Shown: piece after piece, positions 1 to 14,272 of the stretch | Layout: every line of letters begins with the position of its first letter | Position numbering within the stretch: the stretch's first letter is position 1 | Virus record (IMG/VR): IMGVR_UViG_3300003320_000379 | Coordinates: 1 to 58,670 of that record | Source: a virus | Reading direction: 5' to 3' (one strand) | DNA: 58,670 nucleotides | The notes under the pieces: generated by a model | The model's input: the letters and a program-made list of their open reading frames with translations, nothing else | Told to the model about the DNA's origin: nothing | Database searches by the model: none | Position numbers and translations under genes: made by a program

Positions 1-24
1 CCGCCGGTGGCGCGGATCGCGGCC
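1..24. repeat. 24-nt terminal duplication (circular-closure overlap)
   Basis: nt 1-24 (ccgccggtggcgcggatcgcggcc) are identical to nt 58647-58670; the capsid ORF stays in frame across the junction. Confidence 0.95.
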
Positions 25-617
25 CACTTCTCCGACAGCGCCGTGGCCAGGCCCTTGCGGTCCAGCTCCACACCCGCGTTGAAGTTCGGGATGCCGCCCA
101 GGGCGACCGCGCGGCCGGTGACGGCCAGCGCCGTCTTGGCCGGGGCCGCGTCCTTGCGCTGCTTGCCGATGGCGCCCAGCTTGGCGCTGGCGGTCACGCC
201 CTCGCCGCCCTCCGGGTTGTCCCCCTCCGGCTCGCCACCCTCGGGGGTGTCACCCTCGGTCGGGACGGGCGCGGGTGCGCTGGCCGGGTTCGGGTCGCCG
301 GACGGCTTGGTGGCGGGGGTGCCCTCCGGGGCGCTCGCCGGGGTGGCCGGGTCCGGAACGGCGCCTGCCGGGTCCGTGGCGGGCTCGTCCGCGAACGCGG
401 AGCGCGCGGCGTCGGCCTTGCTCGCCAGGTCGGCGCGGCGGGAAAGCTCGCCCTGCACGGCGTCCTTGGCCGACTTCAGGGCCTGCAGCTTGTCCAGGTT
501 CTCCTGGGTGTTCTCCGCCGGGACGGCGCGCCCCTGCCGGTTGATCTCCCCGAGCGCCGCCGACAGCTCTTCCGCCGTCGCGTCGCCCAGGCGCTTGATC
601 AGCTCCGCGAAATCCAT
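1..617 (-). CDS. major capsid protein, N-terminal ~205 codons (scaffold/delta-like domain); ORF continues across the junction into 57482..58670
   Basis: ATG 617-615 follows a GAGAGG RBS. The frame is open to nt 1 and in phase with 58670..57482 (...EKWAAIRATGG|SGREYVARIQ...). It starts MDFAELIKRLGDATAEELSAALGEI (helical), followed by a Pro/Glu/Gly-rich linker. Not in the ORF track because it is cut by the window edge. Confidence 0.8.
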   Translation of the reverse strand, partial: MDFAELIKRLGDATAEELSAALGEINRQGRAVPAENTQENLDKLQALKSAKDAVQGELSRRADLASKADAARSAFADEPATDPAGAVPDPATPASAPEGTPATKPSGDPNPASAPAPVPTEGDTPEGGEPEGDNPEGGEGVTASAKLGAIGKQRKDAAPAKTALAVTGRAVALGGIPNFNAGVELDRKGLATALSEKWAAIRATG

Positions 618-711
618 CGTGGGCTACCTCTCGTCTCGTCATGGTCTTGCCAGGGCGATTGGCCGACGCTAGGCGCTGGCGAAGCGCTCCGGGTTAGACC
701 GCAGAGACGCC

Positions 712-762
712 GATGAGCCCTTACGGAGAGCAGGCTAGCGCCGCTCCGGGCAAGGGCTCATC
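712..762 (-). promoter_or_regulatory. long hairpin in the 170-nt untranslated region upstream of the capsid gene
   Basis: 11-bp arms gatgagccctt / aagggctcatc (712-722, 752-762) inside the largest intergenic gap of the head module (618-787). Confidence 0.3.
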
Positions 763-787
763 GATACGCGGGGGGTATCCCCGTGAT

Positions 788-1327
788 TCAGTTCAGGGAG
801 GGGTGGCCACCTCCGGCCGCGCGCTCCGCCAGCAGGTGGTGCAGGCGCTGCAGGATGCCGAAGAACAGGTACCGCAGCGCGTCCTCCCCGGTGATCGGCT
901 GGCCGCCGACGGGGTCCAGGTCCTTGGCGCCGCGCACGGTCGCCTTGCACACGTTCGCGATAGCCTGGGCGTCGCCGCGCACGGCCGCCTCCAAGATCAC
1001 GGCTTCGCTCTCGTGGTTGACCACGCACTCCGGGGAGCTGCAGCGCGCGGGCTCCACGGGGACTTCCAGCTCCTCTTCGTCGCCCAGCAGGTGCTGCACA
1101 TAGGTGGCCAGCTCGAAGTGGGCGGCGTAGAGCGCGGTCATACGGTCGCCGTCGGTGTACATCGGGGTGTGCGTCAGCACGGTGCTGGTGTAGGCGAAGG
1201 TCACCTCCGGCGCGTGCCGCTGGGTGACGAGCGCCAGCCGGACCACCGACCAGATGAAGCTGCGGAACGCCTCCAGCTTCTCCGGCGGCTCCGGCGCGAT
1301 GTAGGGGTTAACCGGCAATTCGGGCAC
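788..1327 (-). CDS. hypothetical protein (179 aa)
   Basis: Track ORF; GTG start overlaps 1308..1511 by 20 nt; GC3-rich and co-oriented; no motif recognised. Confidence 0.6.
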   Translation of the reverse strand: MPELPVNPYIAPEPPEKLEAFRSFIWSVVRLALVTQRHAPEVTFAYTSTVLTHTPMYTDGDRMTALYAAHFELATYVQHLLGDEEELEVPVEPARCSSPECVVNHESEAVILEAAVRGDAQAIANVCKATVRGAKDLDPVGGQPITGEDALRYLFFGILQRLHHLLAERAAGGGHPSLN

Positions 1328-1511
1328 GGGTTCGTCCCGCCTCTCGTATCAGCCGCTCCAGGGCGGCGGCGTAGGTGGGCGCCGCGCCGCGCAGGATACC
1401 CAGCACGTGCGCCCGGTGAGTCAGGTCCGGCAGCGAGGCGTCCAGTGCCTCCGCCGCCTGCAGCGCCAGCTGGGCCAGTCGCTCAGCTTCGCCGGGTCCC
1501 AGCTGCGCCAT
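1308..1511 (-). CDS. hypothetical protein (67 aa)
   Basis: ATG 1511 preceded by AAGGGAG RBS; follows hairpin 1534-1564. Confidence 0.6.
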   Translation of the reverse strand: MAQLGPGEAERLAQLALQAAEALDASLPDLTHRAHVLGILRGAAPTYAAALERLIREAGRTRARIAG

Positions 1512-1533
1512 GATGTACTCCCTTCAGCAGGAA

Positions 1534-1564
1534 GGCCCGGCCCCGGGGGAAGCGGGGCCGGGCC
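1534..1564 (-). terminator. GC-rich hairpin (12-bp stem), no U tract
   Basis: ggcccggccccg / cggggccgggcc with a 7-nt loop, directly after the stop at 1572. Confidence 0.45.
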
Positions 1565-1571
1565 GGGTCGG

Positions 1572-1850
1572 TCAGCCGACCTGCGGGTCGCCGTAGGCGG
1601 GGCGTCCACCGGCCGTCATCAGGCTTTCCGCCAGGTAGGTCCCCATCGGGTCCCAGCCGCCCTCCGCATACCGCAGCCAGCCGTTTTCCGCCGCGATCTC
1701 CGCCGCGTAGTCCGGCTCCTGCGACTCCCACGCGCCGTAGTAGTCCTCGCACACCTCCAGCTCCGTGACCGACTGGTGTCCGGCGAATTCGCCGGTCTCC
1801 AGCAGCACGGCGCAGCGGTCGTGGGTGAGGTGAGGCATGGTCTCCAGCAT
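1572..1850 (-). CDS. hypothetical acidic protein (92 aa)
   Basis: ATG 1850 preceded by the conserved leader ...GGGACAACCGCAAGGGAGAACCGCC; 39 nt downstream of module 1890-1918. Confidence 0.7.
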   Translation of the reverse strand: MLETMPHLTHDRCAVLLETGEFAGHQSVTELEVCEDYYGAWESQEPDYAAEIAAENGWLRYAEGGWDPMGTYLAESLMTAGGRPAYGDPQVG

Positions 1851-1889
1851 GGCGGTTCTCCCTTGCGGTTGTCCCTTTCGGTAGAACCG

Positions 1890-1918
1890 ACTTTACCCCC
1901 CACTGGGGGGCGTGTCAA
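1890..1918 (-). promoter_or_regulatory. promoter-like module copy (C6-N3-G6 palindrome in spacer)
   Basis: minus strand TTGACACGCCCCCCAGTGGGGGGTAAAGT; 17-nt spacer; 39-nt leader to ATG 1850. Confidence 0.65.
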
Positions 1919-2261
1919 CACCCGGCATCAGCCGTTCATACGTCTTCCGCATGTGCTTCACCACGCGCGGATCGTCCACGAATAGCCGGTGCCGGTTTGC
2001 CCAGGCCAGACCGTTGGCGCACGTCTTGCACGCGGCCGCCTTGTCGCCGTTGTGCACCACGTTGTCGTCCAGCACGACGTGGCCACGGCGGCACACCGGG
2101 CGGCCCTGGGCGTCGGTCGCCCGCTTCTTGCCGCGCACCGCCAGCACGGGCCGGGTTCGACCGGCCAGCCGCTCCAGCTCCCGAGCGGCGCCGTAGTTGC
2201 CCTCCGCCGCTTCGTCGGCGGCCATCTGCGCGGCCAGCTGGCGCATCTCGCGCGTGATCAT
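1893..2261 (-). CDS. His-Me finger / zinc-binding-loop endonuclease-like protein (122 aa)
   Basis: ATGA overlap with 2258..2614. VCRRGHVVLDDNVVHNGDKAAACKTCANG resembles the zinc-binding loop of homing endonucleases. The C-terminal VDTPPSGG* is encoded by the promoter module, and its TAA lies in the -10. Confidence 0.55.
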   Translation of the reverse strand: MITREMRQLAAQMAADEAAEGNYGAARELERLAGRTRPVLAVRGKKRATDAQGRPVCRRGHVVLDDNVVHNGDKAAACKTCANGLAWANRHRLFVDDPRVVKHMRKTYERLMPGVDTPPSGG

Positions 2262-2614
2262 CGGCGACCCCCGCGCGTCCGCCGCGTGGCCGCCCCGTGC
2301 TCGCCCTTGCGGTGCCACTTGTCCGCGTCCGGGCAGTGCAGGGCGTGGTGGCTGTACAGCCGGACCCCGGCCGCGCGCATTCCGGCTGCCTGCCCGGACG
2401 TCGGCTGGGCCGCCTTCAGCACCTTGTCCGGCGGCTTCATGCCGCGCAGGTAGGGCGGCTGGTGCACGGTGAGCGCCCAGTTACCCTGTTCGTGGACGGC
2501 TTCGGGATCAACATCAAACGGGATGCGCTCGTTGCCGGGGCCGTCCGCCCACACCACCTGGGCCTGGCAATACCGGCAGAGGTTCAGGAACGGGTCCAGC
2601 TTCGCCTCAATCAT
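2258..2614 (-). CDS. hypothetical Cys/His-rich protein (118 aa)
   Basis: ATGA overlap with 2611..2790; MIEAKLDPFLNLCRYCQAQVVW...HHALHCPD. Confidence 0.65.
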   Translation of the reverse strand: MIEAKLDPFLNLCRYCQAQVVWADGPGNERIPFDVDPEAVHEQGNWALTVHQPPYLRGMKPPDKVLKAAQPTSGQAAGMRAAGVRLYSHHALHCPDADKWHRKGEHGAATRRTRGGRR

Positions 2615-2790
2615 CGCGCCACCCCGCAATCCATCTTGTGGCCCCAGCCGCGACGGCGGCCGCAGCCGGGGCAGTTGCCCAGGCCGTGACGGTAGGCGAA
2701 CATCCGGGCGCCCTCGCGCAGCTGCACCCAGCGGTAGACGGCCGTGGCGAACCACATCTCCCGGCGGCTGATCTCTCCCGCGCGCGGCAT
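2611..2790 (-). CDS. hypothetical small protein (59 aa)
   Basis: ATG 2790 shares 1 nt with the upstream TGA; MPRAGEISRREMW...NCPGCGRRRGWGHKMDC. Confidence 0.55.
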   Translation of the reverse strand: MPRAGEISRREMWFATAVYRWVQLREGARMFAYRHGLGNCPGCGRRRGWGHKMDCGVAR

Positions 2791-3254
2791 CAGTACGCCA
2801 CCGCCGTGGGCGTGCGCAGGAAGGTGTCCAGCGTGTCCAGGTGGGAGTCCCGCAGGATGTTCAGCGTGCACAGGGCGGGGAGCACGCCCAGCGCCGCCGT
2901 GAGGAACTGCCGGGGGTCGTCGGTACCGACGAACGGCGCGTCGGTCTGGTACCGGATGCCGTTCGGGTCCTCGGTGGTGCGCGCCCGGTCCTCGTCGGAC
3001 AGGGCCGTCAGGATCACCTGGGGCTCCGTCGTCCGGATCACCGGCGACTGGCCGGACGCGGCCAGCCCGAAGACGCCCGGGGCGTAGGCGAGCACGGCAC
3101 GCGGCATCCGCTCCAGCAGGTTGAAGGCGGCGGGCCGGTCGTCGGCGAAGTGGACGCGGCCGGGCCAGCGTGGCTCCAGCCGGTCGTGGAAGGCGATGGC
3201 GAGGCGCGCCGGGCACTGCGGCCCGGACGCTCCCATCACGATCAGGTCCAGCAT
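2790..3254 (-). CDS. hypothetical protein (154 aa)
   Basis: Track ORF; ATG 3254 after the leader ...GGGAACGACCACCGAGAGGAGAACCCGAAC; 39 nt from module 3294-3322. Confidence 0.7.
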   Translation of the reverse strand: MLDLIVMGASGPQCPARLAIAFHDRLEPRWPGRVHFADDRPAAFNLLERMPRAVLAYAPGVFGLAASGQSPVIRTTEPQVILTALSDEDRARTTEDPNGIRYQTDAPFVGTDDPRQFLTAALGVLPALCTLNILRDSHLDTLDTFLRTPTAVAY

Positions 3255-3293
3255 GTTCGGGTTCTCCTCTCGGTGGTCGTTCCCGAGAGGCAG

Positions 3294-3322
3294 ACTTTAC
3301 CCCCCGATGGGGGGTGTGTCAA
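3294..3322 (-). promoter_or_regulatory. promoter-like module copy
   Basis: minus strand TTGACACACCCCCCATCGGGGGGTAAAGT; 17-nt spacer; 39-nt leader to ATG 3254. Confidence 0.65.
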
Positions 3323-3842
3323 CTACGGTAGGCTGCAGCGGCCGGGCGCGGCGCGTTCTCCCCAGCTCCGCGCCGCGCCCGGTCCTTCGGTGGCGCTCGA
3401 TGTAGAACGCGGCGTCGCGCAGGCGGCGCGGGCTGTCCCCCGACATACCCAGCATGATGTTGCAGGACGGGCAGAGCAGGTCACGCACGGCGCCGCTGTC
3501 GTGGTCGTGGTCCACGAAGATCTTCACCAAGGGCTCCGGGCAGATCCCGCATCGGCCCTCCTGCCTCTTGATCATCTCGTCCAGCTGGGCCCGGTCGATG
3601 CCGTACCGGCGCCGGATGTGCCGGTTGCTCATCCGGTCGCGCTGGCGCTCCTGCGGTAGCAGGCGCTCCCGGTTGTCCCGGCGGTACTGCGCACGCGCGG
3701 CGTTGCGGCACGGTCGGCAGACGGACGCCCGCCCGTTCTTGCCCTTGGCGCGCGGCGGAAAGTCCTCCCAGGGCAGCAGCTGGCCGCAGGCGCCCATGCA
3801 CCTGCGGCCAGTCTCGCTCCACGTCTCCAGGTAAGCTGTCAT
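3297..3842 (-). CDS. endonuclease VII-family (HNH-type) nuclease (181 aa)
   Basis: CGICPEPLVKIFVDHDHDSGAVRDLLCPSCNIMLG matches the T4 endo VII-type motif (C-x2-C...DHDH...C-x2-CN). The C-terminal VDTPPIGG* is encoded by module 3294-3322. Confidence 0.75.
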   Translation of the reverse strand: MTAYLETWSETGRRCMGACGQLLPWEDFPPRAKGKNGRASVCRPCRNAARAQYRRDNRERLLPQERQRDRMSNRHIRRRYGIDRAQLDEMIKRQEGRCGICPEPLVKIFVDHDHDSGAVRDLLCPSCNIMLGMSGDSPRRLRDAAFYIERHRRTGRGAELGRTRRARPLQPTVVDTPPIGG

Positions 3843-3864
3843 ACACTTACCTTACACACACTTC

Positions 3865-6207
3865 TCAGCTGGCCGCCTTCTTCTTCTCCCAGTCGGCGAC
3901 GGCGGCGCAGGCTTCCGCGCGCGATCCCGCGTTGATGTGCTGCTTTCCGGGCCAAGAAACGTCGCCCGTGCTGCACATCTTCTTGGCTGCGTTGACAGCA
4001 GTCGCGATGGCGCGGGACTGGTCCATTCCCTTCTCCTGCAGGTGCTTCGCGATCCGCTTGATGTACTTCGGCAGTCCGCCCGCCTTTTCCACCCAGTTCT
4101 TCTTTTTGAATTCGGCCAGATCTTCGTCCGAAACGGAGAACTCGAATTCCCATTCCAGCAATTCCCGGGCGTCGTCCAGGAAGGTACTCCGCAGGTCGTT
4201 CGCGAAGTCGGCGCGCAGCTCCGCCAGGGCCAGCTCCCGCTGCCCGCGCGCGTCCAGCTCCGCCAGCACGGCAGCCGCCACCTCCTCCACGGTGATCTCT
4301 GGGGTCGTCTTGGACTCGTCCCGGCCGACGACTCCGGCCGCCACGAGCGCCACCGGCACGCCGGACGCAACCCGGGCGCGCGGGATCGGGAAGCCACCGG
4401 AGTTGACCGCCAGCGCGGCCACCAGCTCCAGCCCGCCGTCCATCGGCCGCCAGTCGCCCGACAGCGGCGAGGCGCGCAGTGCCTCCACCTGCTCCGGGGT
4501 GGCCGTCCGCCGGACCACGCCGTGCACCCAGATACCGAACGCGTCCTCCCCGGCGGTCACGTCGGCCACCACGGTGTTGACGTTGTCGTAGAACGCGGCC
4601 GCCTCGCTGGCCGACAGCTTCAGCCCGGCGTGGCCGCCCTCGCCCATCGTGATGTGCCCGGCCGCGACCACCTTCACCTCTCCGGCGTCGTGCGTCCGGA
4701 CGGCGCCCACGTTGAAGTAGCCGTAATCGTGGCGGCTACGCGGCGGCGTGACGCACTGCCCGGCGAACCCGGTGTGGCAGGTGCCCCACCCGGCCAGGTG
4801 CCCGTACACCTCGACGTAGCCGGGGATGCTGGAATCGTCCAGCGTGAGCGGCGTCAGCTCCGCCAGCACCGGGTCCGCGAACGCGTGCGCGGGCGGCAGC
4901 ATGGACTTGACGGTGCCGGACGCGGTCACCGGCGCCTTCAGCGTCTCGAACCCGTTCGGGATACCGGCGGCACACAGGAAGCAGTCGTCCCCCAGCTCCG
5001 CCGCCAGCCACGCCGGGCTGGCCGCCGCCGTGATCGTCTCCTCGTTCGGGATGGCCTCTTCGCCGTCGATCACCACGTAAGCCTGCGCGAACGCGGGGAT
5101 CGGGACCAGGGTGGTGGCCGCGATCTTGCCGCTGGTCATACGGATCTGCTGCGGCCCCTGGGTGCCGTCGTCCTCCGCCGCGTCGCCCCAGACGAACTCC
5201 GCCTCCACATCGGACAGATCGGCTGAATTGCCTGTGAGGTAACGCTTTTTGGCCAGCTTGGCGCCGTTGGACTCCGGGTCCACGAAGCCCTTGCCGCCCC
5301 AGACGAACGTCCCTTCGGGGAACGGCTGCCCGGTTTCCTTGTCGATCAGGATTTCCCCGGTGCGCGGGTCGATCGTCTCGGGGCCGTGGGTGCGCGTCAG
5401 GACGTCCAGGCGGCCGATCACTTCGGCGCCCGCGTGGCCGTCGCCACCCTCGGGGTTGGCGGTCTGGGCGAGGATGGGCAGCGGCAGCGCGCGGTGGGTG
5501 AGCGCGCCGGGCTCGATGAACCGCCGGTCGCTGGTCTCCATTCCTTCCAGGATGATCACGGGGAATGTCACCGGGATGCCGTTGGACTCATCCAGCTTCG
5601 GCACCGGCGCCGTCTCCGCCGGGCTGGTCTCCGCCGGGGCCGTCGCCGTGGCGAACGCCTTCACGTCCTGCTGCGGGCCGCCCGGTGCCGGGCCACCGTA
5701 GCCGGGCGTCAGCTCGAAATCGTGGTTCTCGCCGCCCAGGGCGAGGCGCACACGGTTGAACGTGACCGGGCCGGTGTAGCTCAGCGCGTCCGGCTTGATC
5801 CCGTACCCGGCCGTCACGTGCGGCAGGAACCCGGGGTGCTGCTCCGGCATGTCCGCGCCCAGGTGTTCCTTCGCGCCCATCAGTGCGAAGTCCCGGATCT
5901 CGTCCAGCGCCGGGTGCGGCTGCAGCTGGTAGACCGCGCACGACTCCATGTCACCGTCCGGGCCGCCGTCCGGGTTCCACAGCGCGTGACCCATGATCCG
6001 GGCCTGCACCGGCGGGGTGGCCTGCGCGAACTGCTGCACGTGCTGCTTCAGCGCCGACCGCGTGGCGTCGGAGAGGTTCGAGACGTCGTCCCCGAGGTAG
6101 GCCAGCGTGACGTGCAGCTGGTCCTCCGGGTCACCGCCCGGCACGGCGAGCGCCGCCGGGTCCTCCGGAATGAGGGCGATCATGCCGCCCGTGTGCTGGT
6201 CGGCCAT
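3865..6207 (-). CDS. capsid maturation protease with an N-terminal 2H-phosphoesterase (LigT-like) domain (780 aa)
   Basis: aa 1-170 carry two H-x-T motifs (LHVTLAYLG, LPHVTAGYG). The middle has prohead-protease-like segments (VTFPVIILEGMETSDRRFIEPGAL...HAGAEVIGRL; YGHLAGWGTCHTGFAGQCVTPPRS). The C-terminal KKNWVEKAGGLPKYIKRIAKHL tail is typical of actinophage proteases. It lies directly after the portal gene. Confidence 0.75.
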   Translation of the reverse strand: MADQHTGGMIALIPEDPAALAVPGGDPEDQLHVTLAYLGDDVSNLSDATRSALKQHVQQFAQATPPVQARIMGHALWNPDGGPDGDMESCAVYQLQPHPALDEIRDFALMGAKEHLGADMPEQHPGFLPHVTAGYGIKPDALSYTGPVTFNRVRLALGGENHDFELTPGYGGPAPGGPQQDVKAFATATAPAETSPAETAPVPKLDESNGIPVTFPVIILEGMETSDRRFIEPGALTHRALPLPILAQTANPEGGDGHAGAEVIGRLDVLTRTHGPETIDPRTGEILIDKETGQPFPEGTFVWGGKGFVDPESNGAKLAKKRYLTGNSADLSDVEAEFVWGDAAEDDGTQGPQQIRMTSGKIAATTLVPIPAFAQAYVVIDGEEAIPNEETITAAASPAWLAAELGDDCFLCAAGIPNGFETLKAPVTASGTVKSMLPPAHAFADPVLAELTPLTLDDSSIPGYVEVYGHLAGWGTCHTGFAGQCVTPPRSRHDYGYFNVGAVRTHDAGEVKVVAAGHITMGEGGHAGLKLSASEAAAFYDNVNTVVADVTAGEDAFGIWVHGVVRRTATPEQVEALRASPLSGDWRPMDGGLELVAALAVNSGGFPIPRARVASGVPVALVAAGVVGRDESKTTPEITVEEVAAAVLAELDARGQRELALAELRADFANDLRSTFLDDARELLEWEFEFSVSDEDLAEFKKKNWVEKAGGLPKYIKRIAKHLQEKGMDQSRAIATAVNAAKKMCSTGDVSWPGKQHINAGSRAEACAAVADWEKKKAAS

Positions 6208-8843
6208 TAGCTCGCTCCCTGGTCAATGAATCGCTTGCGCAGCAACGTGATCCGCTCCCGCTGGTCCCTGGTCTGCTGGGCGTCGGTGCCCGAACGGCCC
6301 GCCCGGTCGTCCTCTTCGGCCAGGCGCCGGACTTCCGCCATGCTCGGGGCGTCCTCCGCCAGGCGGTCGGTCAAGGTCTCGCTGTACTGGGGGATGGCCC
6401 ACACCGGCAGGGCGTCGCACGCGCAGCCCCGGTGGTCGCCGGGCCGGTACGTGGCGCCCACCCAGGCGTAGCGCGGCTCCGGCACCAGGCGCGGGTCCGC
6501 CCAGCTGCCGAAGCGCTCGCCGTCCAGCTCCTGGTGGGGGTGGAAGTGGTTGCGCGGAGTGACGCCGTACACCCACTCAAACCCCAGCTGTTCCGCGCCT
6601 TCCGCCGCCAGCACGTCGGTGACTTCCTGCCCCAGCGCCAGGCCGCCAACGGGCGCGCCACCGGCGGCCGGGGTGCCGTCGTCGGCCACTCCGCCGGACT
6701 CCGCGCCCGGTCCGCCCAGCAGCGCGAGGGCGCCGCGCACGAGCCCGACCGGCACCAGGTTGCCCGCCGTGTACTCGCCGGGCTCCGCGTCCGGCTCCGG
6801 GTTGTACAGGCGCTTCTCCGCCAGCCGGGTGAGCGCTGACAGCAGGAACTGCCAGGCCGCGCCGCGCCGCTCCGTGAGGCCGTCCTGCAGCCGCTTGGCG
6901 ACGCGCTGGCCGCGCCGGGTGTCCGGCTTCAGCCGCAGCATCCGCAGCACCACGGAGACCACGCCCGCGATGGCCGAATCGGTCCACTGGGTGAAGCGCT
7001 CTTCCAGGCCGCCGAAGGCGTCGGCCAGCAGCTCGTGTTCCTGTACGCCCAGCGCCAGCACCGCGTCCCGGCCCAGGGTCTGGCCGACGGCGAGCGCGTG
7101 CACGCCCTGCAGGCTGGCGGCCACCTTCCGGTCCTTCTGGGCCTTGGACTTGATCCGGGCGCCCGCCTTCTCCAGCGCGCGCTCCATGGCCGCGTCGGCG
7201 GCGTGCTGGATCTGCTCCCGTAGCGCGCGGTCCAGGTCCAGCAGAGCCCGGCCGCCGCGCTCGTCCACCGTCCACTCCGGGCCCCGGTCGGCGGCGGCCA
7301 CGAGCGCCTGGACGAGCCGGACGGCATTCTGGTTGACCGGCGGCGGCGGGGCGCCGTTGTCCGGCGGAGCCTGACCGGGCGCGGTGATCTGGTCCTGCCC
7401 TTCCTGCGGCTGGTCGCCACGCTGGGACGGCACGGAGACCGGGTCCGGCTTCTCCTCCGGCAGGTACTTGTCCCCGCCGAACAGGGCCGCGATCAACAGC
7501 CCGGCGGTGTTGGTGTCCACGCCGATCTTGAACGCGGCCATCCGCAGCACCTCTTCGTCGCTGGGTGCGTCGGATTCGTTGAAGCCCAGCGCGCGCCGCA
7601 GCGTGTCGTAGCCGATGGCGCCACGGTCGTACGCGTCCTTGGCGTCCTGGCCACGGTTCGGGTTCTCCGTGATGTTGCCCGCGTCGTACCAGACCTGAAC
7701 GGTTTTCACGTCGGCTTCGCTGAATCCGCGCGCCAGCAGGGCGGGGCGCAGGAATCCCTCCGTGAGGGAATCAGCGATGATCCGGACGGCCGGGTCAATG
7801 TGGTAGCGGTAGGTGGACGCGTCGATTTGCCAGGCGCTCCAGTGATTCGACTGGCCCAGCCCGGACACGATTTCCGGTGGAATGTCGAGCCCGCGCGCGA
7901 GGCGTTCCAGGCCCTTGTCAATCCGGCCGATGATCTCGGAGGATGTCTCGCGGTCCAGCCGGATGTGCCGGACTTCCTTCAGCTCGTCCTTCGGGCCCCG
8001 GATGACGGCGGGCGCCACCTGGCCGGGCTCGCCCTCATTCGAGATCGGGGCGGTAAGCACGGCCGCCAGATCGGCCATGAACCGGTCGTCGCTCACCAGC
8101 TGCGGGTTGTCGCGCAGCTGCGTCAACAGCGTGAGGGTGTCGGGGACCAGCAGGATGCCGTTCGTGGCGACGCGGGAGCGACTGACCACGCGCAGCTCCT
8201 GGCTGGCCAGCACGATCTCTTCGCACACGTTCAGCAGGCTGCGCATCGGCGAGTCCGCCAGCAGCTTGTACCTGGGGTGGGGAATCCACAGCCGCAGCAT
8301 CTCTTCGCGGGAGGGGTCGATCACGCGGTAGGCGGCTTCGCCGTAGGGGCGGATCGTGATCCGGCCGTCGGCGCCGGGGCGCACCTCCGAAACGGAGTGC
8401 ACCTCCCACTTCTCCTCGCCGTCCTCCTCGTACCCGTGCAGCCACGCTTCGCCGGTGACGCCGAAGTTCTCGTCCAGCACGCCCAGGAAGCTGAACCCGG
8501 CCGACAGTGGCAGGCGGTCCAGCTCTTCCTGCGCGGCCTTGGCCAGCGCCTGCTTGACCGTCACGCCCTTGTCGGCGGTGAGCGGCAGCGGCTCGTCCTC
8601 GTCCGGGACGACCTGCGCGGCCAGGAATTTCACGCGGGCCACGGCGCGGGACCGGAACTGCAGGCCGAAGCGCAGCTCCCCGATCATGTCCCGGTAGCCC
8701 CACGCGTCGTCCTGCCAGTCCTGGCGGGCGGCGGACAGGGTCCGGATGGTGTGGCTGGCGGCGGTGTCCATCCGCATCCCGGATGCCACCATGGTGCGGC
8801 GCTTCCGGTCGCCCTTCGTCGCCGTCCTACCGAACAGCCCCAC
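6207..8843 (-). CDS. portal protein fused to a MuF-like (SPP1 gp7-type) head morphogenesis domain (878 aa)
   Basis: The N-terminal ~480 aa are portal-like (DDAWGYRDMIGELRF..., SNHWSAWQIDASTYRYHIDP). The C-terminus is FEWVYGVTPRNHFHPHQELDGERF...PGDHRGCACD (MuF-type). GTG 8843 follows a GAGAGGTGGTG RBS. Confidence 0.85.
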   Translation of the reverse strand: MGLFGRTATKGDRKRRTMVASGMRMDTAASHTIRTLSAARQDWQDDAWGYRDMIGELRFGLQFRSRAVARVKFLAAQVVPDEDEPLPLTADKGVTVKQALAKAAQEELDRLPLSAGFSFLGVLDENFGVTGEAWLHGYEEDGEEKWEVHSVSEVRPGADGRITIRPYGEAAYRVIDPSREEMLRLWIPHPRYKLLADSPMRSLLNVCEEIVLASQELRVVSRSRVATNGILLVPDTLTLLTQLRDNPQLVSDDRFMADLAAVLTAPISNEGEPGQVAPAVIRGPKDELKEVRHIRLDRETSSEIIGRIDKGLERLARGLDIPPEIVSGLGQSNHWSAWQIDASTYRYHIDPAVRIIADSLTEGFLRPALLARGFSEADVKTVQVWYDAGNITENPNRGQDAKDAYDRGAIGYDTLRRALGFNESDAPSDEEVLRMAAFKIGVDTNTAGLLIAALFGGDKYLPEEKPDPVSVPSQRGDQPQEGQDQITAPGQAPPDNGAPPPPVNQNAVRLVQALVAAADRGPEWTVDERGGRALLDLDRALREQIQHAADAAMERALEKAGARIKSKAQKDRKVAASLQGVHALAVGQTLGRDAVLALGVQEHELLADAFGGLEERFTQWTDSAIAGVVSVVLRMLRLKPDTRRGQRVAKRLQDGLTERRGAAWQFLLSALTRLAEKRLYNPEPDAEPGEYTAGNLVPVGLVRGALALLGGPGAESGGVADDGTPAAGGAPVGGLALGQEVTDVLAAEGAEQLGFEWVYGVTPRNHFHPHQELDGERFGSWADPRLVPEPRYAWVGATYRPGDHRGCACDALPVWAIPQYSETLTDRLAEDAPSMAEVRRLAEEDDRAGRSGTDAQQTRDQRERITLLRKRFIDQGAS

Positions 8844-8856
8844 GGGTCACCACCTC

Positions 8857-9159
8857 TCAACTCTCCCGGCTTGCGATCAGGCCCACCACGGCGCTGATTG
8901 CCAGCGGGACGGCCACCCACTGGAACACGGGCGCGGCCGGGCTGGACGCCACCAGGACGACTCCCAGGGAGATCCAGAACCCGGAGCACCACGGGCAGTC
9001 GACCAGCTCAGACCAGGACCTTGTGCCCCAGCGGGTGAGGACATACTGCCGGAACGCGGGGAGCGGGGGCAGGGAATCGCGGGTCCATAGGCGGGTGAGC
9101 CGGTAGGCCGCCAGCAGGTAGACCAGGGCCCACACGGACGGCACCCAGGCCAGGCTCAC
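8857..9159 (-). CDS. DUF1360-like membrane protein (100 aa)
   Basis: GTGA overlap with 9156..9605; hydrophobic segments and the CPWCSGFW motif. Confidence 0.6.
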   Translation of the reverse strand: MSLAWVPSVWALVYLLAAYRLTRLWTRDSLPPLPAFRQYVLTRWGTRSWSELVDCPWCSGFWISLGVVLVASSPAAPVFQWVAVPLAISAVVGLIASRES

Positions 9160-9605
9160 GCCTCCACCCACCGGACGACGCGCTGGGCGAAGTCGGGGTT
9201 GAACCGGCGTAGCGGCGCGCTGCAGGCGCAGTTCTGGGAAGGGGTGATCACCACGGCGCCCTTGTCGGTGGCCAGGTTGAACCCGTTCCGCGCCATCACC
9301 CCGGTGATCGGCCGGTGCTGCGGCGGCAGGGGCGCCCACCAGTCCGGCGTCCAGCCGTCGGCGGGGGTGGTGCGGTAGACGTACAGGCCGTCCGGGGTGG
9401 CGTAGATCTTGCAGTCGCGCCAGATCTCGCCGGTGTCCGGCAGGCGAATGGCGGCGCGCATCCAGACGGCCATCTGCGCCTGGGGGTGCGGGATGGTCTC
9501 GACGGCCAGCGCGGTGAGCGTGTCGGCCTGTTCGCTGCCCATCTCGATCGTGGCGGGCGCGTCCGGGCGGGGTGCTGCGGCGCGGCGGCGGGGTGAGGTT
9601 GCCAT
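9156..9605 (-). CDS. hypothetical protein (149 aa)
   Basis: Track ORF, ATG 9605; follows hairpin 9622-9663. Confidence 0.65.
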   Translation of the reverse strand: MATSPRRRAAAPRPDAPATIEMGSEQADTLTALAVETIPHPQAQMAVWMRAAIRLPDTGEIWRDCKIYATPDGLYVYRTTPADGWTPDWWAPLPPQHRPITGVMARNGFNLATDKGAVVITPSQNCACSAPLRRFNPDFAQRVVRWVEA

Positions 9606-9621
9606 GGCCGGAGTCTACGGC

Positions 9622-9663
9622 AGAGTCCCCGCACCGTGGGGTGTTCCACGGGGCGGGGACTCT
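9622..9663 (-). terminator. GC-rich hairpin (11-bp stem)
   Basis: agagtccccgc / gcggggactct with a nested ccgtgg/ccacgg pair, after the stop at 9674. Confidence 0.45.
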
Positions 9664-9673
9664 CGGGTGCTGA

Positions 9674-9880
9674 TCAGCTCTTCGGCGGCTTGGCGGCCTG
9701 GTTGGCTTCCAGGATGAGGTAGCCGAACGCCACCAGGGTGACGCCCAGGCCGATCACGAGCGCCTGCCAGCTCAGCAGCACGATCGACACCACCACGGTG
9801 CCGACGAACGCCACGATCAGCAGGAAGACGGCGCGTGCGACGGCGACGGGCAGCGGCTCCGCCGGAACCCGGGCCTTCAC
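9674..9880 (-). CDS. small membrane protein (68 aa, 2 predicted TM)
   Basis: GTGA overlap with 9877..10317; AVARAVFLLIVAFVGTVVVSIVLLSWQALVIGLGVTLVAFGYLIL. Confidence 0.6.
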   Translation of the reverse strand: MKARVPAEPLPVAVARAVFLLIVAFVGTVVVSIVLLSWQALVIGLGVTLVAFGYLILEANQAAKPPKS

Positions 9881-10317
9881 GCTGCCCCCAGGGTGGGGAA
9901 CTCCGTCGAGCGCCGGGCGCCGTTCGGGTAGTGCACGGCGGCCAGGAACTGCCCGGGGTGGCCGTGCTCGTCCTCGATCTTCCGGAAGACGTGCACGGCG
10001 CCCTTGACGGCGGCGTAGACGTAGTCCGTGCCGGAGCTGTCCGGGTAGTCGTGCGGCCACTCGTCACCCTCGGAGGCGATCGTGGCCATGGGCTCGTCTG
10101 TGGGCGCCTCCGCCGCGTCGCGCAGCGCGTCCTCCACGATCCTGACGAACGTGTCGTCGGTGTAGGTCTGGCCCATGATGGCCGGGCCGAACAGGTCCAG
10201 GTCGTCCATCATGGCCGGGCTGCCGTCGTCCAGCAGGCTGCCCAGGTACTTGGCGTCCGGACCGGTGCCCAGGTAGAAGTCCGCTGTGGACACTTCGCCT
10301 CCTAAGTCGTTACTCAC
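9877..10317 (-). CDS. hypothetical strongly acidic protein (146 aa)
   Basis: Track ORF, GTG 10317; rich in D/E (…MMDDLDLF…EGDEWPHDYPDSSGTDY…). Confidence 0.65.
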   Translation of the reverse strand: MSNDLGGEVSTADFYLGTGPDAKYLGSLLDDGSPAMMDDLDLFGPAIMGQTYTDDTFVRIVEDALRDAAEAPTDEPMATIASEGDEWPHDYPDSSGTDYVYAAVKGAVHVFRKIEDEHGHPGQFLAAVHYPNGARRSTEFPTLGAA

Positions 10318-10324
10318 GGTTACA

Positions 10325-11161
10325 CTACTTCAGCTGGAAAGACTCCGGGCGGTAGCCCAGGCGCGGCTGCTGCAGCCGCTGCACCACCCGACCCGCGCGC
10401 TTGCTGTTCCAGGCGCTCACGTACAGCGCCAGCTCCTCCAGCGTGGTCAGGCGGTCCCGGTCCTTGCGCTTCAGCAGCGCGTCCCGGAGGGCGAACACGG
10501 GGTCGCCCACCGCCAACTCCGCGCCGGAGGCCAGCTTGCGGAAGAACTCGTGGCATAGCGCGGTGTCGATCTCCTCCGCGAAAAAGTGCACGGCGCCCGC
10601 GACCGGCACGCGGCCCCGGACGCGCGAGTACTGCGCCTTGGCGGCGGCCACCGCGCGGGCCATCTGGTCCTTGTGCTCGCTGCAGAACGCCACGATCTCC
10701 GGGTTCGACGGCACCAGGATGTTGGTGGTCAGGTCCTCCGCGTCCCAGCGGATGGCCAGGCGCGCGATGGACGCCCAGTCCCGGGCCGACTTCTCCGTCA
10801 GCTTGGAAATCTGCACCTGGTCGCCGGGCTGGCGGCCGGAGCCCTGGTCCACGTAGAGCTGGGCTTCGGGGTGGAATCCGCGCATCACCAGCAGTGTCTG
10901 ACTGGTGCCGGAGCGCCGGATGGCGATCAGCCGGTGCTGGCCGTCGATCAGGCGGCCGGTGTCGTCGAACCGCACCGGGTCGCCGACGAAACGGAACTCG
11001 TCCAGCTCCATGGCGCGTGTGATCTTGGACAGGTTGCCCTTTTTCGTGTTGCGGTTGTTGTCGTTGAGCTTCAACCACTCGGCCGCCAGGTCCGGGCCGA
11101 CCTCCACGAACTCCAGCGTAATCGTCTGCCCGTCGATCACCCGGGTGAGCTTGTCTCCCAT
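10325..11161 (-). CDS. ParB/Srx-fold protein with DGQHR motif (278 aa)
   Basis: NNRNTKKGNLSKITRAMELDEF...GRLIDGQHRLIAI matches the ParB N-terminal domain pattern; ATG 11161 after GAAGGAAGGGAG. Confidence 0.6.
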   Translation of the reverse strand: MGDKLTRVIDGQTITLEFVEVGPDLAAEWLKLNDNNRNTKKGNLSKITRAMELDEFRFVGDPVRFDDTGRLIDGQHRLIAIRRSGTSQTLLVMRGFHPEAQLYVDQGSGRQPGDQVQISKLTEKSARDWASIARLAIRWDAEDLTTNILVPSNPEIVAFCSEHKDQMARAVAAAKAQYSRVRGRVPVAGAVHFFAEEIDTALCHEFFRKLASGAELAVGDPVFALRDALLKRKDRDRLTTLEELALYVSAWNSKRAGRVVQRLQQPRLGYRPESFQLK

Positions 11162-11183
11162 CGGGCTCCCTTCCTTCGTCGTT

Positions 11184-11212
11184 CGGCCCGGCGGGAAGTC
11201 CCCGCCGGGCCG
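11184..11212 (-). terminator. GC-rich hairpin (12-bp stem, 5-nt loop)
   Basis: cggcccggcggg aagtc cccgccgggccg between the stop at 11226 and the start at 11161. Confidence 0.45.
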
Positions 11213-11225
11213 TCCTTCGTCCGCG

Positions 11226-11570
11226 TCAGTCCGCGAAGTACCAGCGCGGGAAGTAGTACACGACCCCCGGCCCGGTGCCCGTGTCGCGCACCGCGTCGAA
11301 CAGGTTCACTACCACGTCCAGGGCGTCGTCCACGCGCCCTTCCGCGTCGAACCCGGAGTCGAGCGGCCCCACGTCCTCGCTGCGGTCCACGGCGTGGAAG
11401 GCGGCCTGCTTGGACACCTCGACGGCGAACATGGCCAGCTGGCGCGACTCGTCCAGCCGGACGGCCGGAGCACCGGCGAACTCGAACACGTCGCCGTGGT
11501 GGCCGCCCATGTTCTCCAGCGCGGCGGTGAGCCAGGCCAGCGGGATGTGGTTCTGCTTCAGCTTCTGCAT
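11226..11570 (-). CDS. hypothetical protein (114 aa)
   Basis: ATG 11570 after the leader ...GCGGAACAACGACGAACGAGGAGAACCGCG; 38 nt from module 11609-11637. Confidence 0.7.
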   Translation of the reverse strand: MQKLKQNHIPLAWLTAALENMGGHHGDVFEFAGAPAVRLDESRQLAMFAVEVSKQAAFHAVDRSEDVGPLDSGFDAEGRVDDALDVVVNLFDAVRDTGTGPGVVYYFPRWYFAD

Positions 11571-11608
11571 CGCGGTTCTCCTCGTTCGTCGTTGTTCCGC
11601 TGAAGATG

Positions 11609-11637
11609 AATCTACCCCCCAGTGGGGGGTGTGTCAA
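11609..11637 (-). promoter_or_regulatory. promoter-like module copy
   Basis: minus strand TTGACACACCCCCCACTGGGGGGTAGATT; the upstream gene's TGA lies inside the TTGACA. Confidence 0.65.
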
Positions 11638-11834
11638 GCCCCGAGCTGCCAGACCCGCCCGACCACCACGCCCGCGTGGCAGAACCGGCAGATCAGCATG
11701 GGCACGCTCTGCAGTGGCTCCCCGCGCACTGGCACCGGACGCACGGCGAGGCCCGGCAGCCCGCACTCCCCGCACGGCAGGTTGCCGGACGGGCGCCCGC
11801 CCGCCGGGGTCCGCTTCGTGTACTGGTTGACCAT
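11634..11834 (-). CDS. small zinc-ribbon-like protein (66 aa)
   Basis: CGEC...CRFC Cys pairs; ATG 11834 after GGAAAGGACACCG. Confidence 0.6.
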   Translation of the reverse strand: MVNQYTKRTPAGGRPSGNLPCGECGLPGLAVRPVPVRGEPLQSVPMLICRFCHAGVVVGRVWQLGA

Positions 11835-11856
11835 CGGTGTCCTTTCCGGACGACAG

Positions 11857-11885
11857 CGGGGGCGGCCCGCGTGGACCGCCCCCGG
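11857..11885 (-). terminator. GC-rich hairpin (9-bp stem)
   Basis: cgggggcgg / ccgcccccg after the TAG at 11893. Confidence 0.4.
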
Positions 11886-11892
11886 TTGGTGA

Positions 11893-12480
11893 CTAGTTGT
11901 CGAACACGAGCGGCGCCCAGGGCGGCAGCTCCGTGTCCACGATCTTCACGTCGTTGGCCTTCAGGCGGCTCACGAGCGGCACCACGGCAGCCCGGCAGTT
12001 CACCGCGCCGGAGAGGCCCGTCCCGCCGCCCACGATCTTGACCTCTGCACGCACCTCCGCCGTGCCGACCTTGAAGCCCTTGGCCCGCATGTTCTTGACG
12101 AAGGTGGCCTGCTTGGTAGCGCGGGACTCGTTCAGGAACCGCTTGCCGAACTTCTCCGCCGCCGCGTCGTTCAGCACCCAGTACGGCCCGTACTGGCCCC
12201 ACTTGTAATGGGTGCTGGCGATCTCGCCCGTCTCCGCGTCCAGCAACACCGGGACGGTGGTCAGGCCGCGCGCCTTGCACAGCTCCACGGCCGCGCCGTC
12301 GGCGTCCCCACCCAGGCGGCTGGCCCACTGGGACAGGAAGCCGTCGGTGTCGCAGCGCTCGAATGACTCGTGGGCCCGGTCGTACTCGGCCTTCATGCTG
12401 GCCTGCAGCTCTTCGGCGAGGGCATCCCACTCAGCGTCGGTGCGGTCGGTGTTCCAGTTCACGGAGGCGTAGGTGGCCAT
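11893..12480 (-). CDS. hypothetical protein (195 aa)
   Basis: ATG 12480 after the leader ...CAGGAACAACCGCAAGGGAGAACCGGAC; 40 nt from module 12521-12550. Confidence 0.7.
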   Translation of the reverse strand: MATYASVNWNTDRTDAEWDALAEELQASMKAEYDRAHESFERCDTDGFLSQWASRLGGDADGAAVELCKARGLTTVPVLLDAETGEIASTHYKWGQYGPYWVLNDAAAEKFGKRFLNESRATKQATFVKNMRAKGFKVGTAEVRAEVKIVGGGTGLSGAVNCRAAVVPLVSRLKANDVKIVDTELPPWAPLVFDN

Positions 12481-12520
12481 GTCCGGTTCTCCCTTGCGGT
12501 TGTTCCTGTTGACATGAAGA

Positions 12521-12550
12521 ACTCTACCCCTCGCTGGGGGGTAGAGTCAA
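12521..12550 (-). promoter_or_regulatory. promoter-like module copy, extended-palindrome variant
   Basis: minus strand TTGACTCTACCCCCCAGCGAGGGGTAGAGT; the arms extend to ACTCTACCCC / GGGGTAGAGT, so TAGAGT reads on both strands. Confidence 0.6.
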
Positions 12551-12559
12551 CACCCTTTC

Positions 12560-12832
12560 TCAATCTTCGTCGTTCACCCAGTTGTAGTGGGGCTCCCAGG
12601 CCACGTGTTCCAGCAGCTCAGCGGCGGTGTGCGCCGTCCGCAGGTGCTCCCGAAAAAGGTCCGTCCAGACCTCTTTCTGGTCGTCCCCGTACGCCTCGCG
12701 GCGGAGGCGCGGGTGCCACGTCGGCCGGTAGTCGTCCGGCGGCTCCGGCAGCGTCACCGTGAAGTCGCAGCCGCCCGGCAGCTCCGCCAGCGGACAGGGC
12801 AGCACCTCCGCGCGCTTGATCTCGTCCGTCAT
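12560..12832 (-). CDS. hypothetical protein (90 aa)
   Basis: ATGA overlap with 12829..13332; MTDEIKRAEVLPCPLAELPGGCDF... Confidence 0.6.
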   Translation of the reverse strand: MTDEIKRAEVLPCPLAELPGGCDFTVTLPEPPDDYRPTWHPRLRREAYGDDQKEVWTDLFREHLRTAHTAAELLEHVAWEPHYNWVNDED

Positions 12833-13332
12833 GCTTTCGGCCTTCCGTTCTCGTCCTGGTAGTGGTCGTCCAGCGTCACCGCGCCGTCGGTGTGCACGTA
12901 GAGCCCGGCCCGGCCGTACGCGCGCGCGGCCGCCTGCAGGGTCTCCGCGCTGGGCCCGGCGCCTGCCTTGACGAAGGCGTCGGCGGTGAGGCAGTCCCGG
13001 CTCACGCCGAACGCGTCCCCCAGGGCCGCCCAGGCGCCCTCTTCGGTCCCTCCCTGCCCGGCAGCCCGCCAGCGCGCTGCCGCGTCCAGGTGGGCGTACT
13101 GGGCCCGCCGGAAGGACTCCGCGACGCGGAACAGCCGGACCACGGCCAGGGGCTCGACGCGCCGCGTGGAGACGTACGTCCGAATGTCCTCGCCGTGCCG
13201 GGGCGCGTACACCCAGCAGTTGCGACGGCACATGCCGTACAAGTAGCCGGACAGGAACGCCCGTCGGTTCGCGTTGTCCCGCCGGAGCTGGGCGCGGCGG
13301 CGGTTCTCCGCCACCTCCGCGTCGGTAGCCAT
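12829..13332 (-). CDS. hypothetical protein (167 aa)
   Basis: Track ORF, ATG 13332; follows hairpin 13358-13384. Confidence 0.65.
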   Translation of the reverse strand: MATDAEVAENRRRAQLRRDNANRRAFLSGYLYGMCRRNCWVYAPRHGEDIRTYVSTRRVEPLAVVRLFRVAESFRRAQYAHLDAAARWRAAGQGGTEEGAWAALGDAFGVSRDCLTADAFVKAGAGPSAETLQAAARAYGRAGLYVHTDGAVTLDDHYQDENGRPKA

Positions 13333-13357
13333 CGTGTGCCCTCCCTGGGCGGTTGGG

Positions 13358-13384
13358 CCGGGGCGGCTGGCGGGCCGCCCCGGC
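13358..13384 (-). terminator. GC-rich hairpin (11-bp stem)
   Basis: gccggggcggc / gccgccccggc after the stop at 13391. Confidence 0.4.
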
Positions 13385-13390
13385 GGGGTG

Positions 13391-13657
13391 TCACAGGCCG
13401 AAGGTCCGTTCGAACTTCTCCGCGTAGGTCTCCGTCTCCGTGGCGGGCATCGGGACCGCGATGTTCAGGCACTTTTCGCAGTTCACCGGGGCGGCACCCA
13501 CCCGGTTGTAGGCGGAGCGGCTGCGCTGGCCACACAGGGGCCGGAGGCGGGGAGAGTAGTCCGCCGCGTTCGAGTCGGTGTAGTGGATCACCGGGGCGCC
13601 AGCCTTGTATCCGGAGCCGAAGATCTTGTGGAGCTTGGCGGGGGCGGTGGTGGCCAT
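13391..13657 (-). CDS. hypothetical protein (88 aa)
   Basis: ATG 13657 after the leader ...CAGGAACGACCGACAGGGAGAACCGAA; 38 nt from module 13696-13726. Confidence 0.7.
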   Translation of the reverse strand: MATTAPAKLHKIFGSGYKAGAPVIHYTDSNAADYSPRLRPLCGQRSRSAYNRVGAAPVNCEKCLNIAVPMPATETETYAEKFERTFGL

Positions 13658-13695
13658 TTCGGTTCTCCCTGTCGGTCGTTCCTGCTGATAAGAGA

Positions 13696-13726
13696 ACTAT
13701 ACCCCCCGGTGGGGGGTGTCCGTCAA
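13696..13726 (-). promoter_or_regulatory. promoter-like module copy
   Basis: minus strand TTGACGGACACCCCCCACCGGGGGGTATAGT; sits immediately downstream of terminator 13737-13781. Confidence 0.6.
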
Positions 13727-13736
13727 TGGGGTAGCC

Positions 13737-13781: not shown

Positions 13782-13801
13782 GTCCCGGACCGTCCGGGAG
13801 C

Positions 13802-14230: not shown

Positions 14231-14272
14231 GGCCGGGTCCTCCGTGAGTCGTTGTTCCCTGTTGGTGTGTTC

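Follow-up and report, generated by a model that had tools for sequence, protein, structure and literature searches.

Why should a protein that helps to build a phage head begin with a domain of the 2H phosphoesterase superfamily? This question is raised by a gene on the minus strand at positions 3865–6207 of IMG/VR virus record IMGVR_UViG_3300003320_000379, a stretch of 58,670 nucleotides analysed over its full length and referred to here as the window; all coordinates are those of the whole window, and residue numbers are those of the 780-residue protein encoded by the gene. The list of open reading frames (ORFs) and matches to PHROG families characterize the product as a head-morphogenesis protein, in which a 2H domain, a linker, a beta-rich domain A, a beta-rich domain B and a helical C-terminal region follow one another. 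The gene is best explained as the source of a polyprotein that serves head morphogenesis in an actinobacterial siphophage with a high GC content. According to family profiles and a predicted structure, residues 1–170 are a 2H phosphoesterase domain with intact catalytic residues and predicted activity, and the role tentatively preferred for this domain is that of an enzyme carried within the capsid.

The 2H (LigT-like) domain was delimited by PF13563, structure modelling and Foldseek. An earlier annotation made from the letters of the DNA (the sequence-only reading) had placed it at 5697–6207; the assignment to residues 1–170 stands, and the exact span is 5698–6207 on the minus strand. Both catalytic motifs named in that reading were recovered at their places by motif search and homologue alignment, namely H32-V-T34-L within LHVTLAYLG (6103–6114, minus strand) and H130-V-T132-A within LPHVTAGYG (5809–5820, minus strand), and both are conserved in homologues; the pattern H-x-[TS]-x has three matches in the whole protein, two of which are those at His32 and His130. 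Against Pfam PF13563 (2_5_RNA_ligase2), residues 1–170 score 34.9 bits (E=1.9e-8) and the full-length protein 31 bits, where the gathering threshold (GA) is 27, and the 'RNA ligase' family phrog_2659 is matched at E=1.4e-34. LigT_PEase (PF02834) reaches 19.5 bits, below its GA of 23.3, and sequence and profile searches against PDB sequences gave nothing meaningful for the 2H domain. The AlphaFold2 (AF2) model of residues 1–175, derived from an alignment of 64 homologues, has a mean predicted local distance difference test score (pLDDT) of 94.2, with both HxT motifs opening central strands (E33-39 and E130-135). A Foldseek comparison of this model with the PDB, which the sequence-only reading had proposed as a check, recovered the 2H fold throughout: the 50 best matches listed are all 2H-fold proteins, 49 chains have E<=1e-3, and the list is led by E. 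coli LigT (5ldm, E=1.4e-7), followed by proteins of P. horikoshii (1vdx) and T. thermophilus (1iuh), the D. radiodurans CPDase (5h7e) and B. subtilis YjcG (2d4g), with a Burkholderia phage phosphodiesterase, Acb1, a poxvirus cGAMP phosphodiesterase (PDE), Usb1, AKAP18 and viral 2'-5' PDEs lower down. The catalytic residues are retained across the family. The 64 homologues of the same architecture show no variation at H32, T34 and H130, and conservation of T132 among them is at least 90%; in 252 full-coverage homologues, the complete H-T-H-T tetrad is found in 242 and both histidines in 251, the His and the Thr of the first motif each being present in 251. Such retention argues for selection for catalysis.

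Among PDB structures, the domain is closest to LigT (ThpR) and the CPDases (5ldm, 1vdx, 1iuh, 5h7e and 2d4g; E 1e-7 to 1e-6, TM ~0.55–0.62), with which it shares the two HxT motifs and a similar size; identity to these proteins is only 13–19%, and they are free cellular enzymes, whereas the domain in the window is fused to a virion assembly protein. Virus-encoded LigT-like PDEs, including Acb1 of phage FBB1 (7t27), the penguinpox/pigeonpox cGAMP PDE (9bkq), rotavirus VP3 and coronavirus NS2, likewise possess the 2H fold with two catalytic histidines and are matched by Foldseek at E 3e-5 to 1e-3, but their TMq values of 0.42–0.49 are lower than those of LigT, and they are free early or non-structural proteins without a head-protein fusion. 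Nomburg et al. (2024, PMC11410667) showed that such enzymes, in phages and in viruses of eukaryotes alike, break down cGAMP or 2'-5' oligoadenylate, which establishes them as a pan-viral means of countering immunity. The sequence-only reading had mentioned Acb1 as an enzyme of this fold. Membership of the Acb1 family (PF23474) was rejected at 14.6 bits (E=0.028) against a GA of 27, in an alignment that spans the second-motif region only; the structural matches to Acb1 (7t27 and 7t26; E 3e-5 to 1e-4, TMq 0.42–0.44) are inferior to those to LigT and the CPDases.

The Pro/Ala/Thr linker described in the sequence-only reading is present behind the 2H domain as a flexible, Pro/Ala/Thr/Gly-rich segment at residues 171–215 (positions 5563–5697, minus strand), recognized by its composition and by its low model confidence, with pLDDT falling to ~53 where the 2H model ends. 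Its length and sequence vary between homologues, and it may be considered a candidate site of proteolytic release. The boundaries of the 2H module are sharp (…HTGGM[IV]AL[IV]P … D[YF]PL.G) and its flanks are variable acidic or Pro/Ala-rich linkers; despite these boundaries, no consensus cleavage site flanking the module is evident among homologues. The AF2 model of residues 206–780 (pLDDT 84) consists of two beta-rich domains, a helix of ~50 residues and a conserved helical C-terminal region. Domain A (residues ~216–385, positions 5053–5562, minus strand), a candidate prohead protease domain, is modelled mostly at pLDDT >90 and contains an S328 that is invariant and an H258 that is near-invariant in homologues; judged by eye, the order of its motifs is like that of HK97 gp4 (TSDRRFIEPGAL, GDGH258, GNS328ADL, TTLVPIPAF), with which it shares short in-register matches that are non-significant. 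Domain B (residues ~440–610, positions 4378–4890, minus strand), delimited by AF2 and by a match to phrog_18402 at 2.4e-51 over residues 421–670, has invariant H470, H478, S491, H526, D541, S583 and D585, and its motifs also follow, by eye, an HK97-gp4-like order (GGH526, GEDAFGIWVHG, PLS583GDW, LELVAALAVN), within which GEDAFGIWVHG is a weak, non-significant match to the ED-x-x-GL motif of HK97 gp4. Motif order is the sole basis on which H258 and S328 in domain A and H526 and S583 in domain B are put forward as catalytic candidates. As an observation in its own right, two tandem beta-rich domains each with a conserved His and Ser constitute a candidate duplicated protease fold; an hhalign comparison of domain A with domain B gave no signal of duplication.

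The assignment of this region to a capsid maturation protease, which the sequence-only reading had made, is supported by fold similarity, annotation and gene position only, and not by membership of the S78 sequence profile. The PHROG families matched by the 780-residue protein are named 'head maturation protease', 'portal protein' and 'RNA ligase', the labels falling on domain B are 'head maturation protease', 'portal protein' and 'virion structural protein', and phrog_18402 ('head maturation protease') is matched at E=2e-82. A Foldseek search of BFVD returned annotated actinophage homologues first and then dozens of independent models named 'prohead protease', 'HK97 family' or 'COG3740' at E 1e-5 to 1e-7, matches that do not tell domain A from domain B; in the PDB, the sole hint for the C-terminal part was the EBV protease 1o6e (E=0.033). 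Pfam S78 (PF04586) was matched neither by the whole protein nor by 17 domain-B or 13 domain-A sequences. Comparisons with HK97 gp4 by hhalign, alone and as a 13-sequence profile, and an hmmsearch against 120 of its relatives were non-significant; the HK97 gp4 homologues retrieved are 68–98% identical to one another, too close for a sensitive profile. Searches of PDB sequences and profiles gave nothing meaningful for the C-terminal 575 residues, domain B or the whole family, and NCBIfam had no match for the 780-residue protein (E<=1) or for the portal protein. The label 'capsid maturation protease' is reasonable for domains A and B at the level of fold, position and annotation. The long helix and helical C-terminal region (residues ~640–780, positions 3868–4290, minus strand; AF2 helices 435–484 and 489–574 of the residue 206–780 model) carry a highly conserved LPKYIKRIAKHL...AIATAVNAAKKMC motif with near-invariant columns and had no family match in a profile search; by analogy with the C-terminal capsid targeting of HK97-type proteases, this region may be scaffold-like or capsid-targeting.

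The genomic setting agrees with the claim of the sequence-only reading that the 2H domain is fused to a head-morphogenesis protein, the gene lying between the portal and major capsid genes, which is the position of an HK97-type protease gene. On the minus strand, the order is portal, 2H-protease, endonuclease VII/HNH, several small ORFs, major capsid, a phrog_779 ORF and major tail. The portal gene (6207–8843, minus strand, 878 residues; phrog_776 portal, 1.9e-107 over residues 12–583) lies directly upstream, and the ATG of the 2H-protease gene overlaps its stop in the sequence TAATG at 6205–6209, with a Shine-Dalgarno sequence, AGGGAG, 7 nt upstream of the ATG; the overlap and the AGGGAG make the start credible and translationally coupled to the portal gene. 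The C-terminal extension of the portal protein (~295 residues, positions 6210–7091, minus strand), which contains HPHQELDGERF…HRGCACD, may tentatively be called MuF-like, its sole family match being a weak one to phrog_324 'head morphogenesis' (E=0.011); similarity to the MuF region of Streptomyces phage Salete gp11 was not found. Directly downstream, within the head module, is an endonuclease VII/HNH gene (3297–3842, minus strand; phrog_2633, 1.6e-32; Pfam Endonuclease_7), which has no counterpart at that place in the syntenic metagenomic contig L002 and is likely a mobile homing-type endonuclease. The major capsid gene is divided between the two ends of the window, its C-terminal part at 57482–58670 (minus strand; phrog_777 major head protein, 1e-56) and its N-terminal part, across the circular junction, at 6–617 (minus strand), as indicated by a split match to a 588-residue L002 protein. 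A phrog_779 ORF with no assigned function (56594–57409, minus strand) separates it from a major tail protein with an Ig domain. The 24-nt exact direct terminal repeat (1–24 = 58647–58670), together with the division of the major capsid gene over both ends, shows that the window is a circularly assembled genome of ~58.6 kb, and it is probably a complete phage genome. It has a GC content of 70%, with nearly all genes on the minus strand, and the other genes recognized in it encode SSB, ERF, an IstB-like loader, terminase and HNH proteins. No near-identical cultured relative was found by megablast of positions 1–20000 against phages, and 377 homologues of the 780-residue protein were collected at E<=1e-5, mostly from contigs of 55–61 kb.

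Comparison of these homologues indicates how freely the 2H module has moved. Close homologues have the order 2H-A-B-C, which is that of the window's clade, or A-2H-B-C, and a few have A-B-C without 2H; in a sister clade, the module is inserted between two protease-like domains, and in the 2H-less close homologues P0061, P0067, P0084 and P0085 the remainder of the protein is intact. Of 252 homologues, 148 bear the module at the N-terminus, 73 internally and 5 at the C-terminus, and 26 are stand-alone proteins, the last form being exemplified by the 183-residue gp92 of Bxz1-like myophages, which adjoins ThyX and lacks a head-protein fusion. Where a fusion partner of the module can be recognized, it is a protein of the capsid interior (protease-like domains, portal or MuF), and most of 80 related viral loci have a portal-sized ORF of ~850–940 residues immediately upstream of the 2H gene. 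In 69 further carriers, the Pfam partners are Phage_portal, Portal_Mu, Phage_Mu_F, ADPrib_exo_Tox, NUDIX, GNAT and PI3_PI4_kinase, the same set as in the 'polyvalent' effector proteins that are packaged in phage heads. Two observations on the representatives P0241–P0380 may be recorded here: some 2H carriers also contain intein/LAGLIDADG domains, one protein reaching 2,567 residues, and many share a motif without annotation, SPDP..LR.YW..G.G.AKW.PG.PGDF.RL…GL.AN.H…G.WPG.

The family is widespread. A HMMER scan of 1.84 billion representatives yielded 1,985 clusters at E<=1e-3, defined at 50% identity, and 700 at E<=1e-10, and tblastn located the 2H module in 414 cultured actinophage genomes of Mycobacterium, Gordonia, Microbacterium, Streptomyces and Rhodococcus, Microbacterium phage Fregley being one cultured carrier. 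In Streptomyces phage Salete (gp11), the Gordonia phages MelBins (gp19), EMoore (gp13) and GTE6, and the capsid maturation proteases of Microbacterium phages, the 2H homologue (30–45% identity) is accompanied by homologous protease-like domains and lies between the portal/MuF and major capsid genes, as in the window; protein identity to the window protein is <60%, and the order of domains differs, being MuF-2H-A-B in Salete gp11 and B-x-2H in the Gordonia phages, such as MelBins gp19, against 2H-A-B in the window. Annotations of these actinophage genes read 'RNA ligase', 'head/capsid maturation protease' or 'capsid maturation protease and MuF-like fusion protein', and one gene may even bear two labels, 'RNA ligase' in GenBank and 'head maturation protease' in RefSeq (MelBins, MN586028.1 and NC_053244.1; EMoore, MN586047.1 and NC_053243.1), while IMG names homologues '2'-5' RNA ligase'. 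The 780-residue protein contains no Pfam domain of an ATP-dependent RNA ligase (Rnl or RtcB). The label 'RNA ligase' is misleading and is a relic of the name '2'-5' RNA ligase'; a better annotation would be '2H phosphoesterase domain fused to a head protease/MuF protein'.

The fusion itself is not new, since it is common and annotated in cultured actinophages. Moreover, 2H-MuF and 2H-portal fusions that never associate with RNA ligases were described by Iyer, Burroughs, Anand, de Souza and Aravind (2017, J Bacteriol, PMC5512222), who proposed on computational grounds that they are injected effectors, acting as an RNase (their first suggestion) or by degrading the nucleotide signals of counter-invader systems. 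The novelty implied by the sequence-only reading is consequently low: the fusion is annotated in hundreds of cultured actinophages, and the effector hypothesis has been in print since 2017 (PMC5512222). The window resembles those fusions in that a domain of the same superfamily resides on a capsid-interior head protein in a late structural operon with no linked RNA ligase, and in that Phage_Mu_F, Phage_portal/Portal_Mu, ART, NUDIX and GNAT domains are found in homologues of its 2H subfamily. It departs from them in its partner, a protease/scaffold-type protein rather than MuF or portal, and in the permutation of the 2H module around two protease-like domains. What the window adds is new context, consisting of a clean example of a protease/scaffold carrier, this permutation, and the adjacency of Acb2/Tad1-type genes in relatives.

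That adjacency concerns the slot between the portal/MuF gene and the 2H gene. Five related loci have an Acb2_Tad1_hairpin gene of ~80–90 residues directly 5' of the 2H gene, with E-values down to 2.4e-16: at L002:9757–10008 (83 residues, between portal and 2H gene; Pfam E=2.9e-9, above threshold), at L003:5763–6005 (in the window's nearest relative, whose 2H domain is 94% identical), at L026:5437–5682, at L051:5434–5673 and at L053:79–351. The immune signals that Acb2 and Tad1 soak up as sponges are cyclic oligonucleotides and gcADPR. No further copies were found elsewhere in the ±6 kb flanks of the related loci, and the window has no Acb2/Tad1-like gene anywhere, its own slot being empty. Other occupants of the slot in relatives include an HD_3/YfbR-like phosphohydrolase (L054:4670–5425), a HIT-family nucleotide hydrolase (gp16 of Gordonia phage MelBins, L085:2647–3009), a DUF7316 protein, an RMF-like ORF and many ORFs without assignment, an accessory gene at L061:4679–5080 being listed with the DUF7316 and RMF-like set. 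The slot may be a small hot spot for counter-defence genes or morons, and its occupants point to small-nucleotide counter-defence rather than RNA repair, by guilt by association in a minority of loci. As a separate observation, the Acb2/Tad1-like homologues of cultured phages, exemplified by cluster E mycobacteriophages (Balomoji, PP978826.1, 60988–61185) and the Arthrobacter jumbo phages Mimi and Racecar, lie beside a ClpP-like protease gene in a non-structural region and do not adjoin 2H genes, and one of them is already annotated as a 'cyclic nucleotide inhibitor'.

Taken with this context, the 2H domain is tentatively read as a capsid-targeted cargo that would be delivered to the host and would hydrolyse nucleotide-derived immune messengers, a reading to which somewhat less than an even chance is given and for which we infer packaging, release, delivery and substrate. 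The last ~570 residues, with two prohead-protease-fold domains and a helical scaffold-like tail, would carry the protein into the procapsid, as HK97-type proteases and scaffolds do, so that tens of copies of the 2H enzyme could be co-assembled into proheads, probably freed at the linker during maturation, and brought into the next cell with the DNA; late in infection, the cytoplasm too would contain much of the enzyme. Its substrate would be a nucleotide-derived host molecule, the likeliest being immune second messengers, such as the cyclic oligonucleotides of CBASS or type III CRISPR, 2'-5'-linked species, or ADP-ribose-derived cyclic phosphates; hydrolysis of messengers is the mode of action of T4 Acb1 and the viral LigT-like PDEs. 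A precedent for delivery exists in T4 Alt, IPI-III and MuF-toxin fusions, where cargo enters the procapsid through a head-assembly component, is trimmed by the prohead protease and is injected with the DNA, as established for T4 (PMC5512222); unlike in those cases, the carrier here would be the protease/scaffold polypeptide itself, and the packaging and injection of the 2H fusion are presumed. As in head-packaged effector fusions, the 2H domain and a capsid-interior head protein are joined in one polypeptide among late virion genes. The notion of a virion-packaged PDE acting on nucleotide signals, which the sequence-only reading had advanced, is strengthened, not demonstrated, by a mobile module with capsid-interior partners, by the ART, NUDIX and GNAT co-domains and by the sponge neighbours, while packaging, retention and substrate stay presumptive. 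A bolder version, in which the domain would be the catalytic arm of a head-operon counter-defence islet, an injected PDE, carried into the capsid by the protease/scaffold, that erases immune signals of the cyclic-oligonucleotide or ADP-ribose-derived kind before phage genes are newly expressed, alongside the sponge, HD and HIT genes that fill the slot in relatives, is doubtful.

Several points weigh against the delivered-cargo reading. HK97-type proteases normally self-digest and leave the capsid, so the 2H cargo could be lost or destroyed at maturation. Stand-alone copies, such as gp92 of the Bxz1-like phages, show that capsid targeting is not required for function, and late expression by itself could explain a role against capsid-triggered defences, without delivery. 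On profile and model evidence, the domain is not of the Acb1 family and appears nearer to LigT and the CPDases (TM ~0.6) than to Acb1. Only 5 of ~80 related loci have the Acb2/Tad1 neighbour, and these 5 are not phylogenetically independent. A literature search found no published virion-packaged phosphodiesterase and no published experiments on 2H-head fusions, and packaging, survival after maturation and the substrate are presumed steps. Some of the same facts could be accommodated by a late cytoplasmic anti-defence enzyme, which is rather unlikely: the fusion would merely couple the 2H domain to late head-gene expression, and the enzyme would act in the producing cell on nucleotide signals that the sensing of capsid, portal or terminase proteins sets off, to be discarded or degraded at maturation. 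The translational coupling to the portal gene within the late head operon, the stand-alone homologues that work without a capsid partner, the adjoining Acb2/Tad1-type sponges of relatives, which are cytoplasmic in action, and the usual auto-digestion and loss of HK97-type proteases would all suit such an enzyme. Timing alone, however, predicts fusions to any late protein, whereas the partners found are capsid-interior proteins and effector domains of the packaged polyvalent type, and the 2H module keeps discrete, linker-flanked boundaries at every place of insertion.

The substrate could also be RNA, with the domain acting as a Usb1-type RNase on host RNA or healing the 2',3'-cyclic phosphate ends of tRNAs cut by anticodon nucleases. 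The closest structures are of LigT/ThpR type and CPDases, Usb1 is among the Foldseek matches, RNase activity was the first suggestion made for the 2H-MuF and 2H-portal proteins (PMC5512222), and GenBank and IMG label homologues 'RNA ligase' or '2'-5' RNA ligase'. RNA repair, an option that the sequence-only reading had kept, is nevertheless ranked low because its partner enzymes are absent from the window, neither an RNA ligase nor RtcB nor a polynucleotide kinase/phosphatase being detected among the 56 other window ORFs, in agreement with the published separation of 2H-MuF and 2H-portal versions from RNA ligases (PMC5512222). Furthermore, turning a 2',3'-cyclic phosphate into a 2'-phosphate would obstruct host RtcB instead of assisting it, according to established LigT/ThpR and RtcB biochemistry, and the neighbouring genes of relatives bind or hydrolyse small nucleotides, not RNA; an RNA-directed enzyme is judged unlikely overall. 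A purely structural function, with the 2H domain serving as a spacer, an oligomerization module or a regulator of the protease and its phosphoesterase chemistry being irrelevant to host conflict, would fit its embedding in a protease/scaffold/portal/MuF set and its location between protease-like domains in the sister clade. It is highly improbable, as the near-universal H-T-H-T tetrad argues for selection on catalysis, the four homologues that lack 2H are otherwise intact and their heads are presumably built without it, and the module occurs also alone and with toxin-type effector domains.

The fusion of a 2H domain to a head protein in this phage is real and tidy, and cultured relatives open it to experiment, but it would not surprise a specialist. 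Because the family is large and is present in many cultured, tractable phages of Streptomyces, Gordonia and Microbacterium, an eight-year-old prediction becomes directly testable. To our knowledge, all known anti-signalling enzymes and sponges must first be synthesized in the infected cell. If the 2H domain is truly packaged and delivered, phages would be able to neutralize nucleotide-based immunity (CBASS, Thoeris, Pycsar, type III CRISPR) as soon as infection begins, and if the islet interpretation is true, this would be the first virion-delivered enzyme directed against second messengers.

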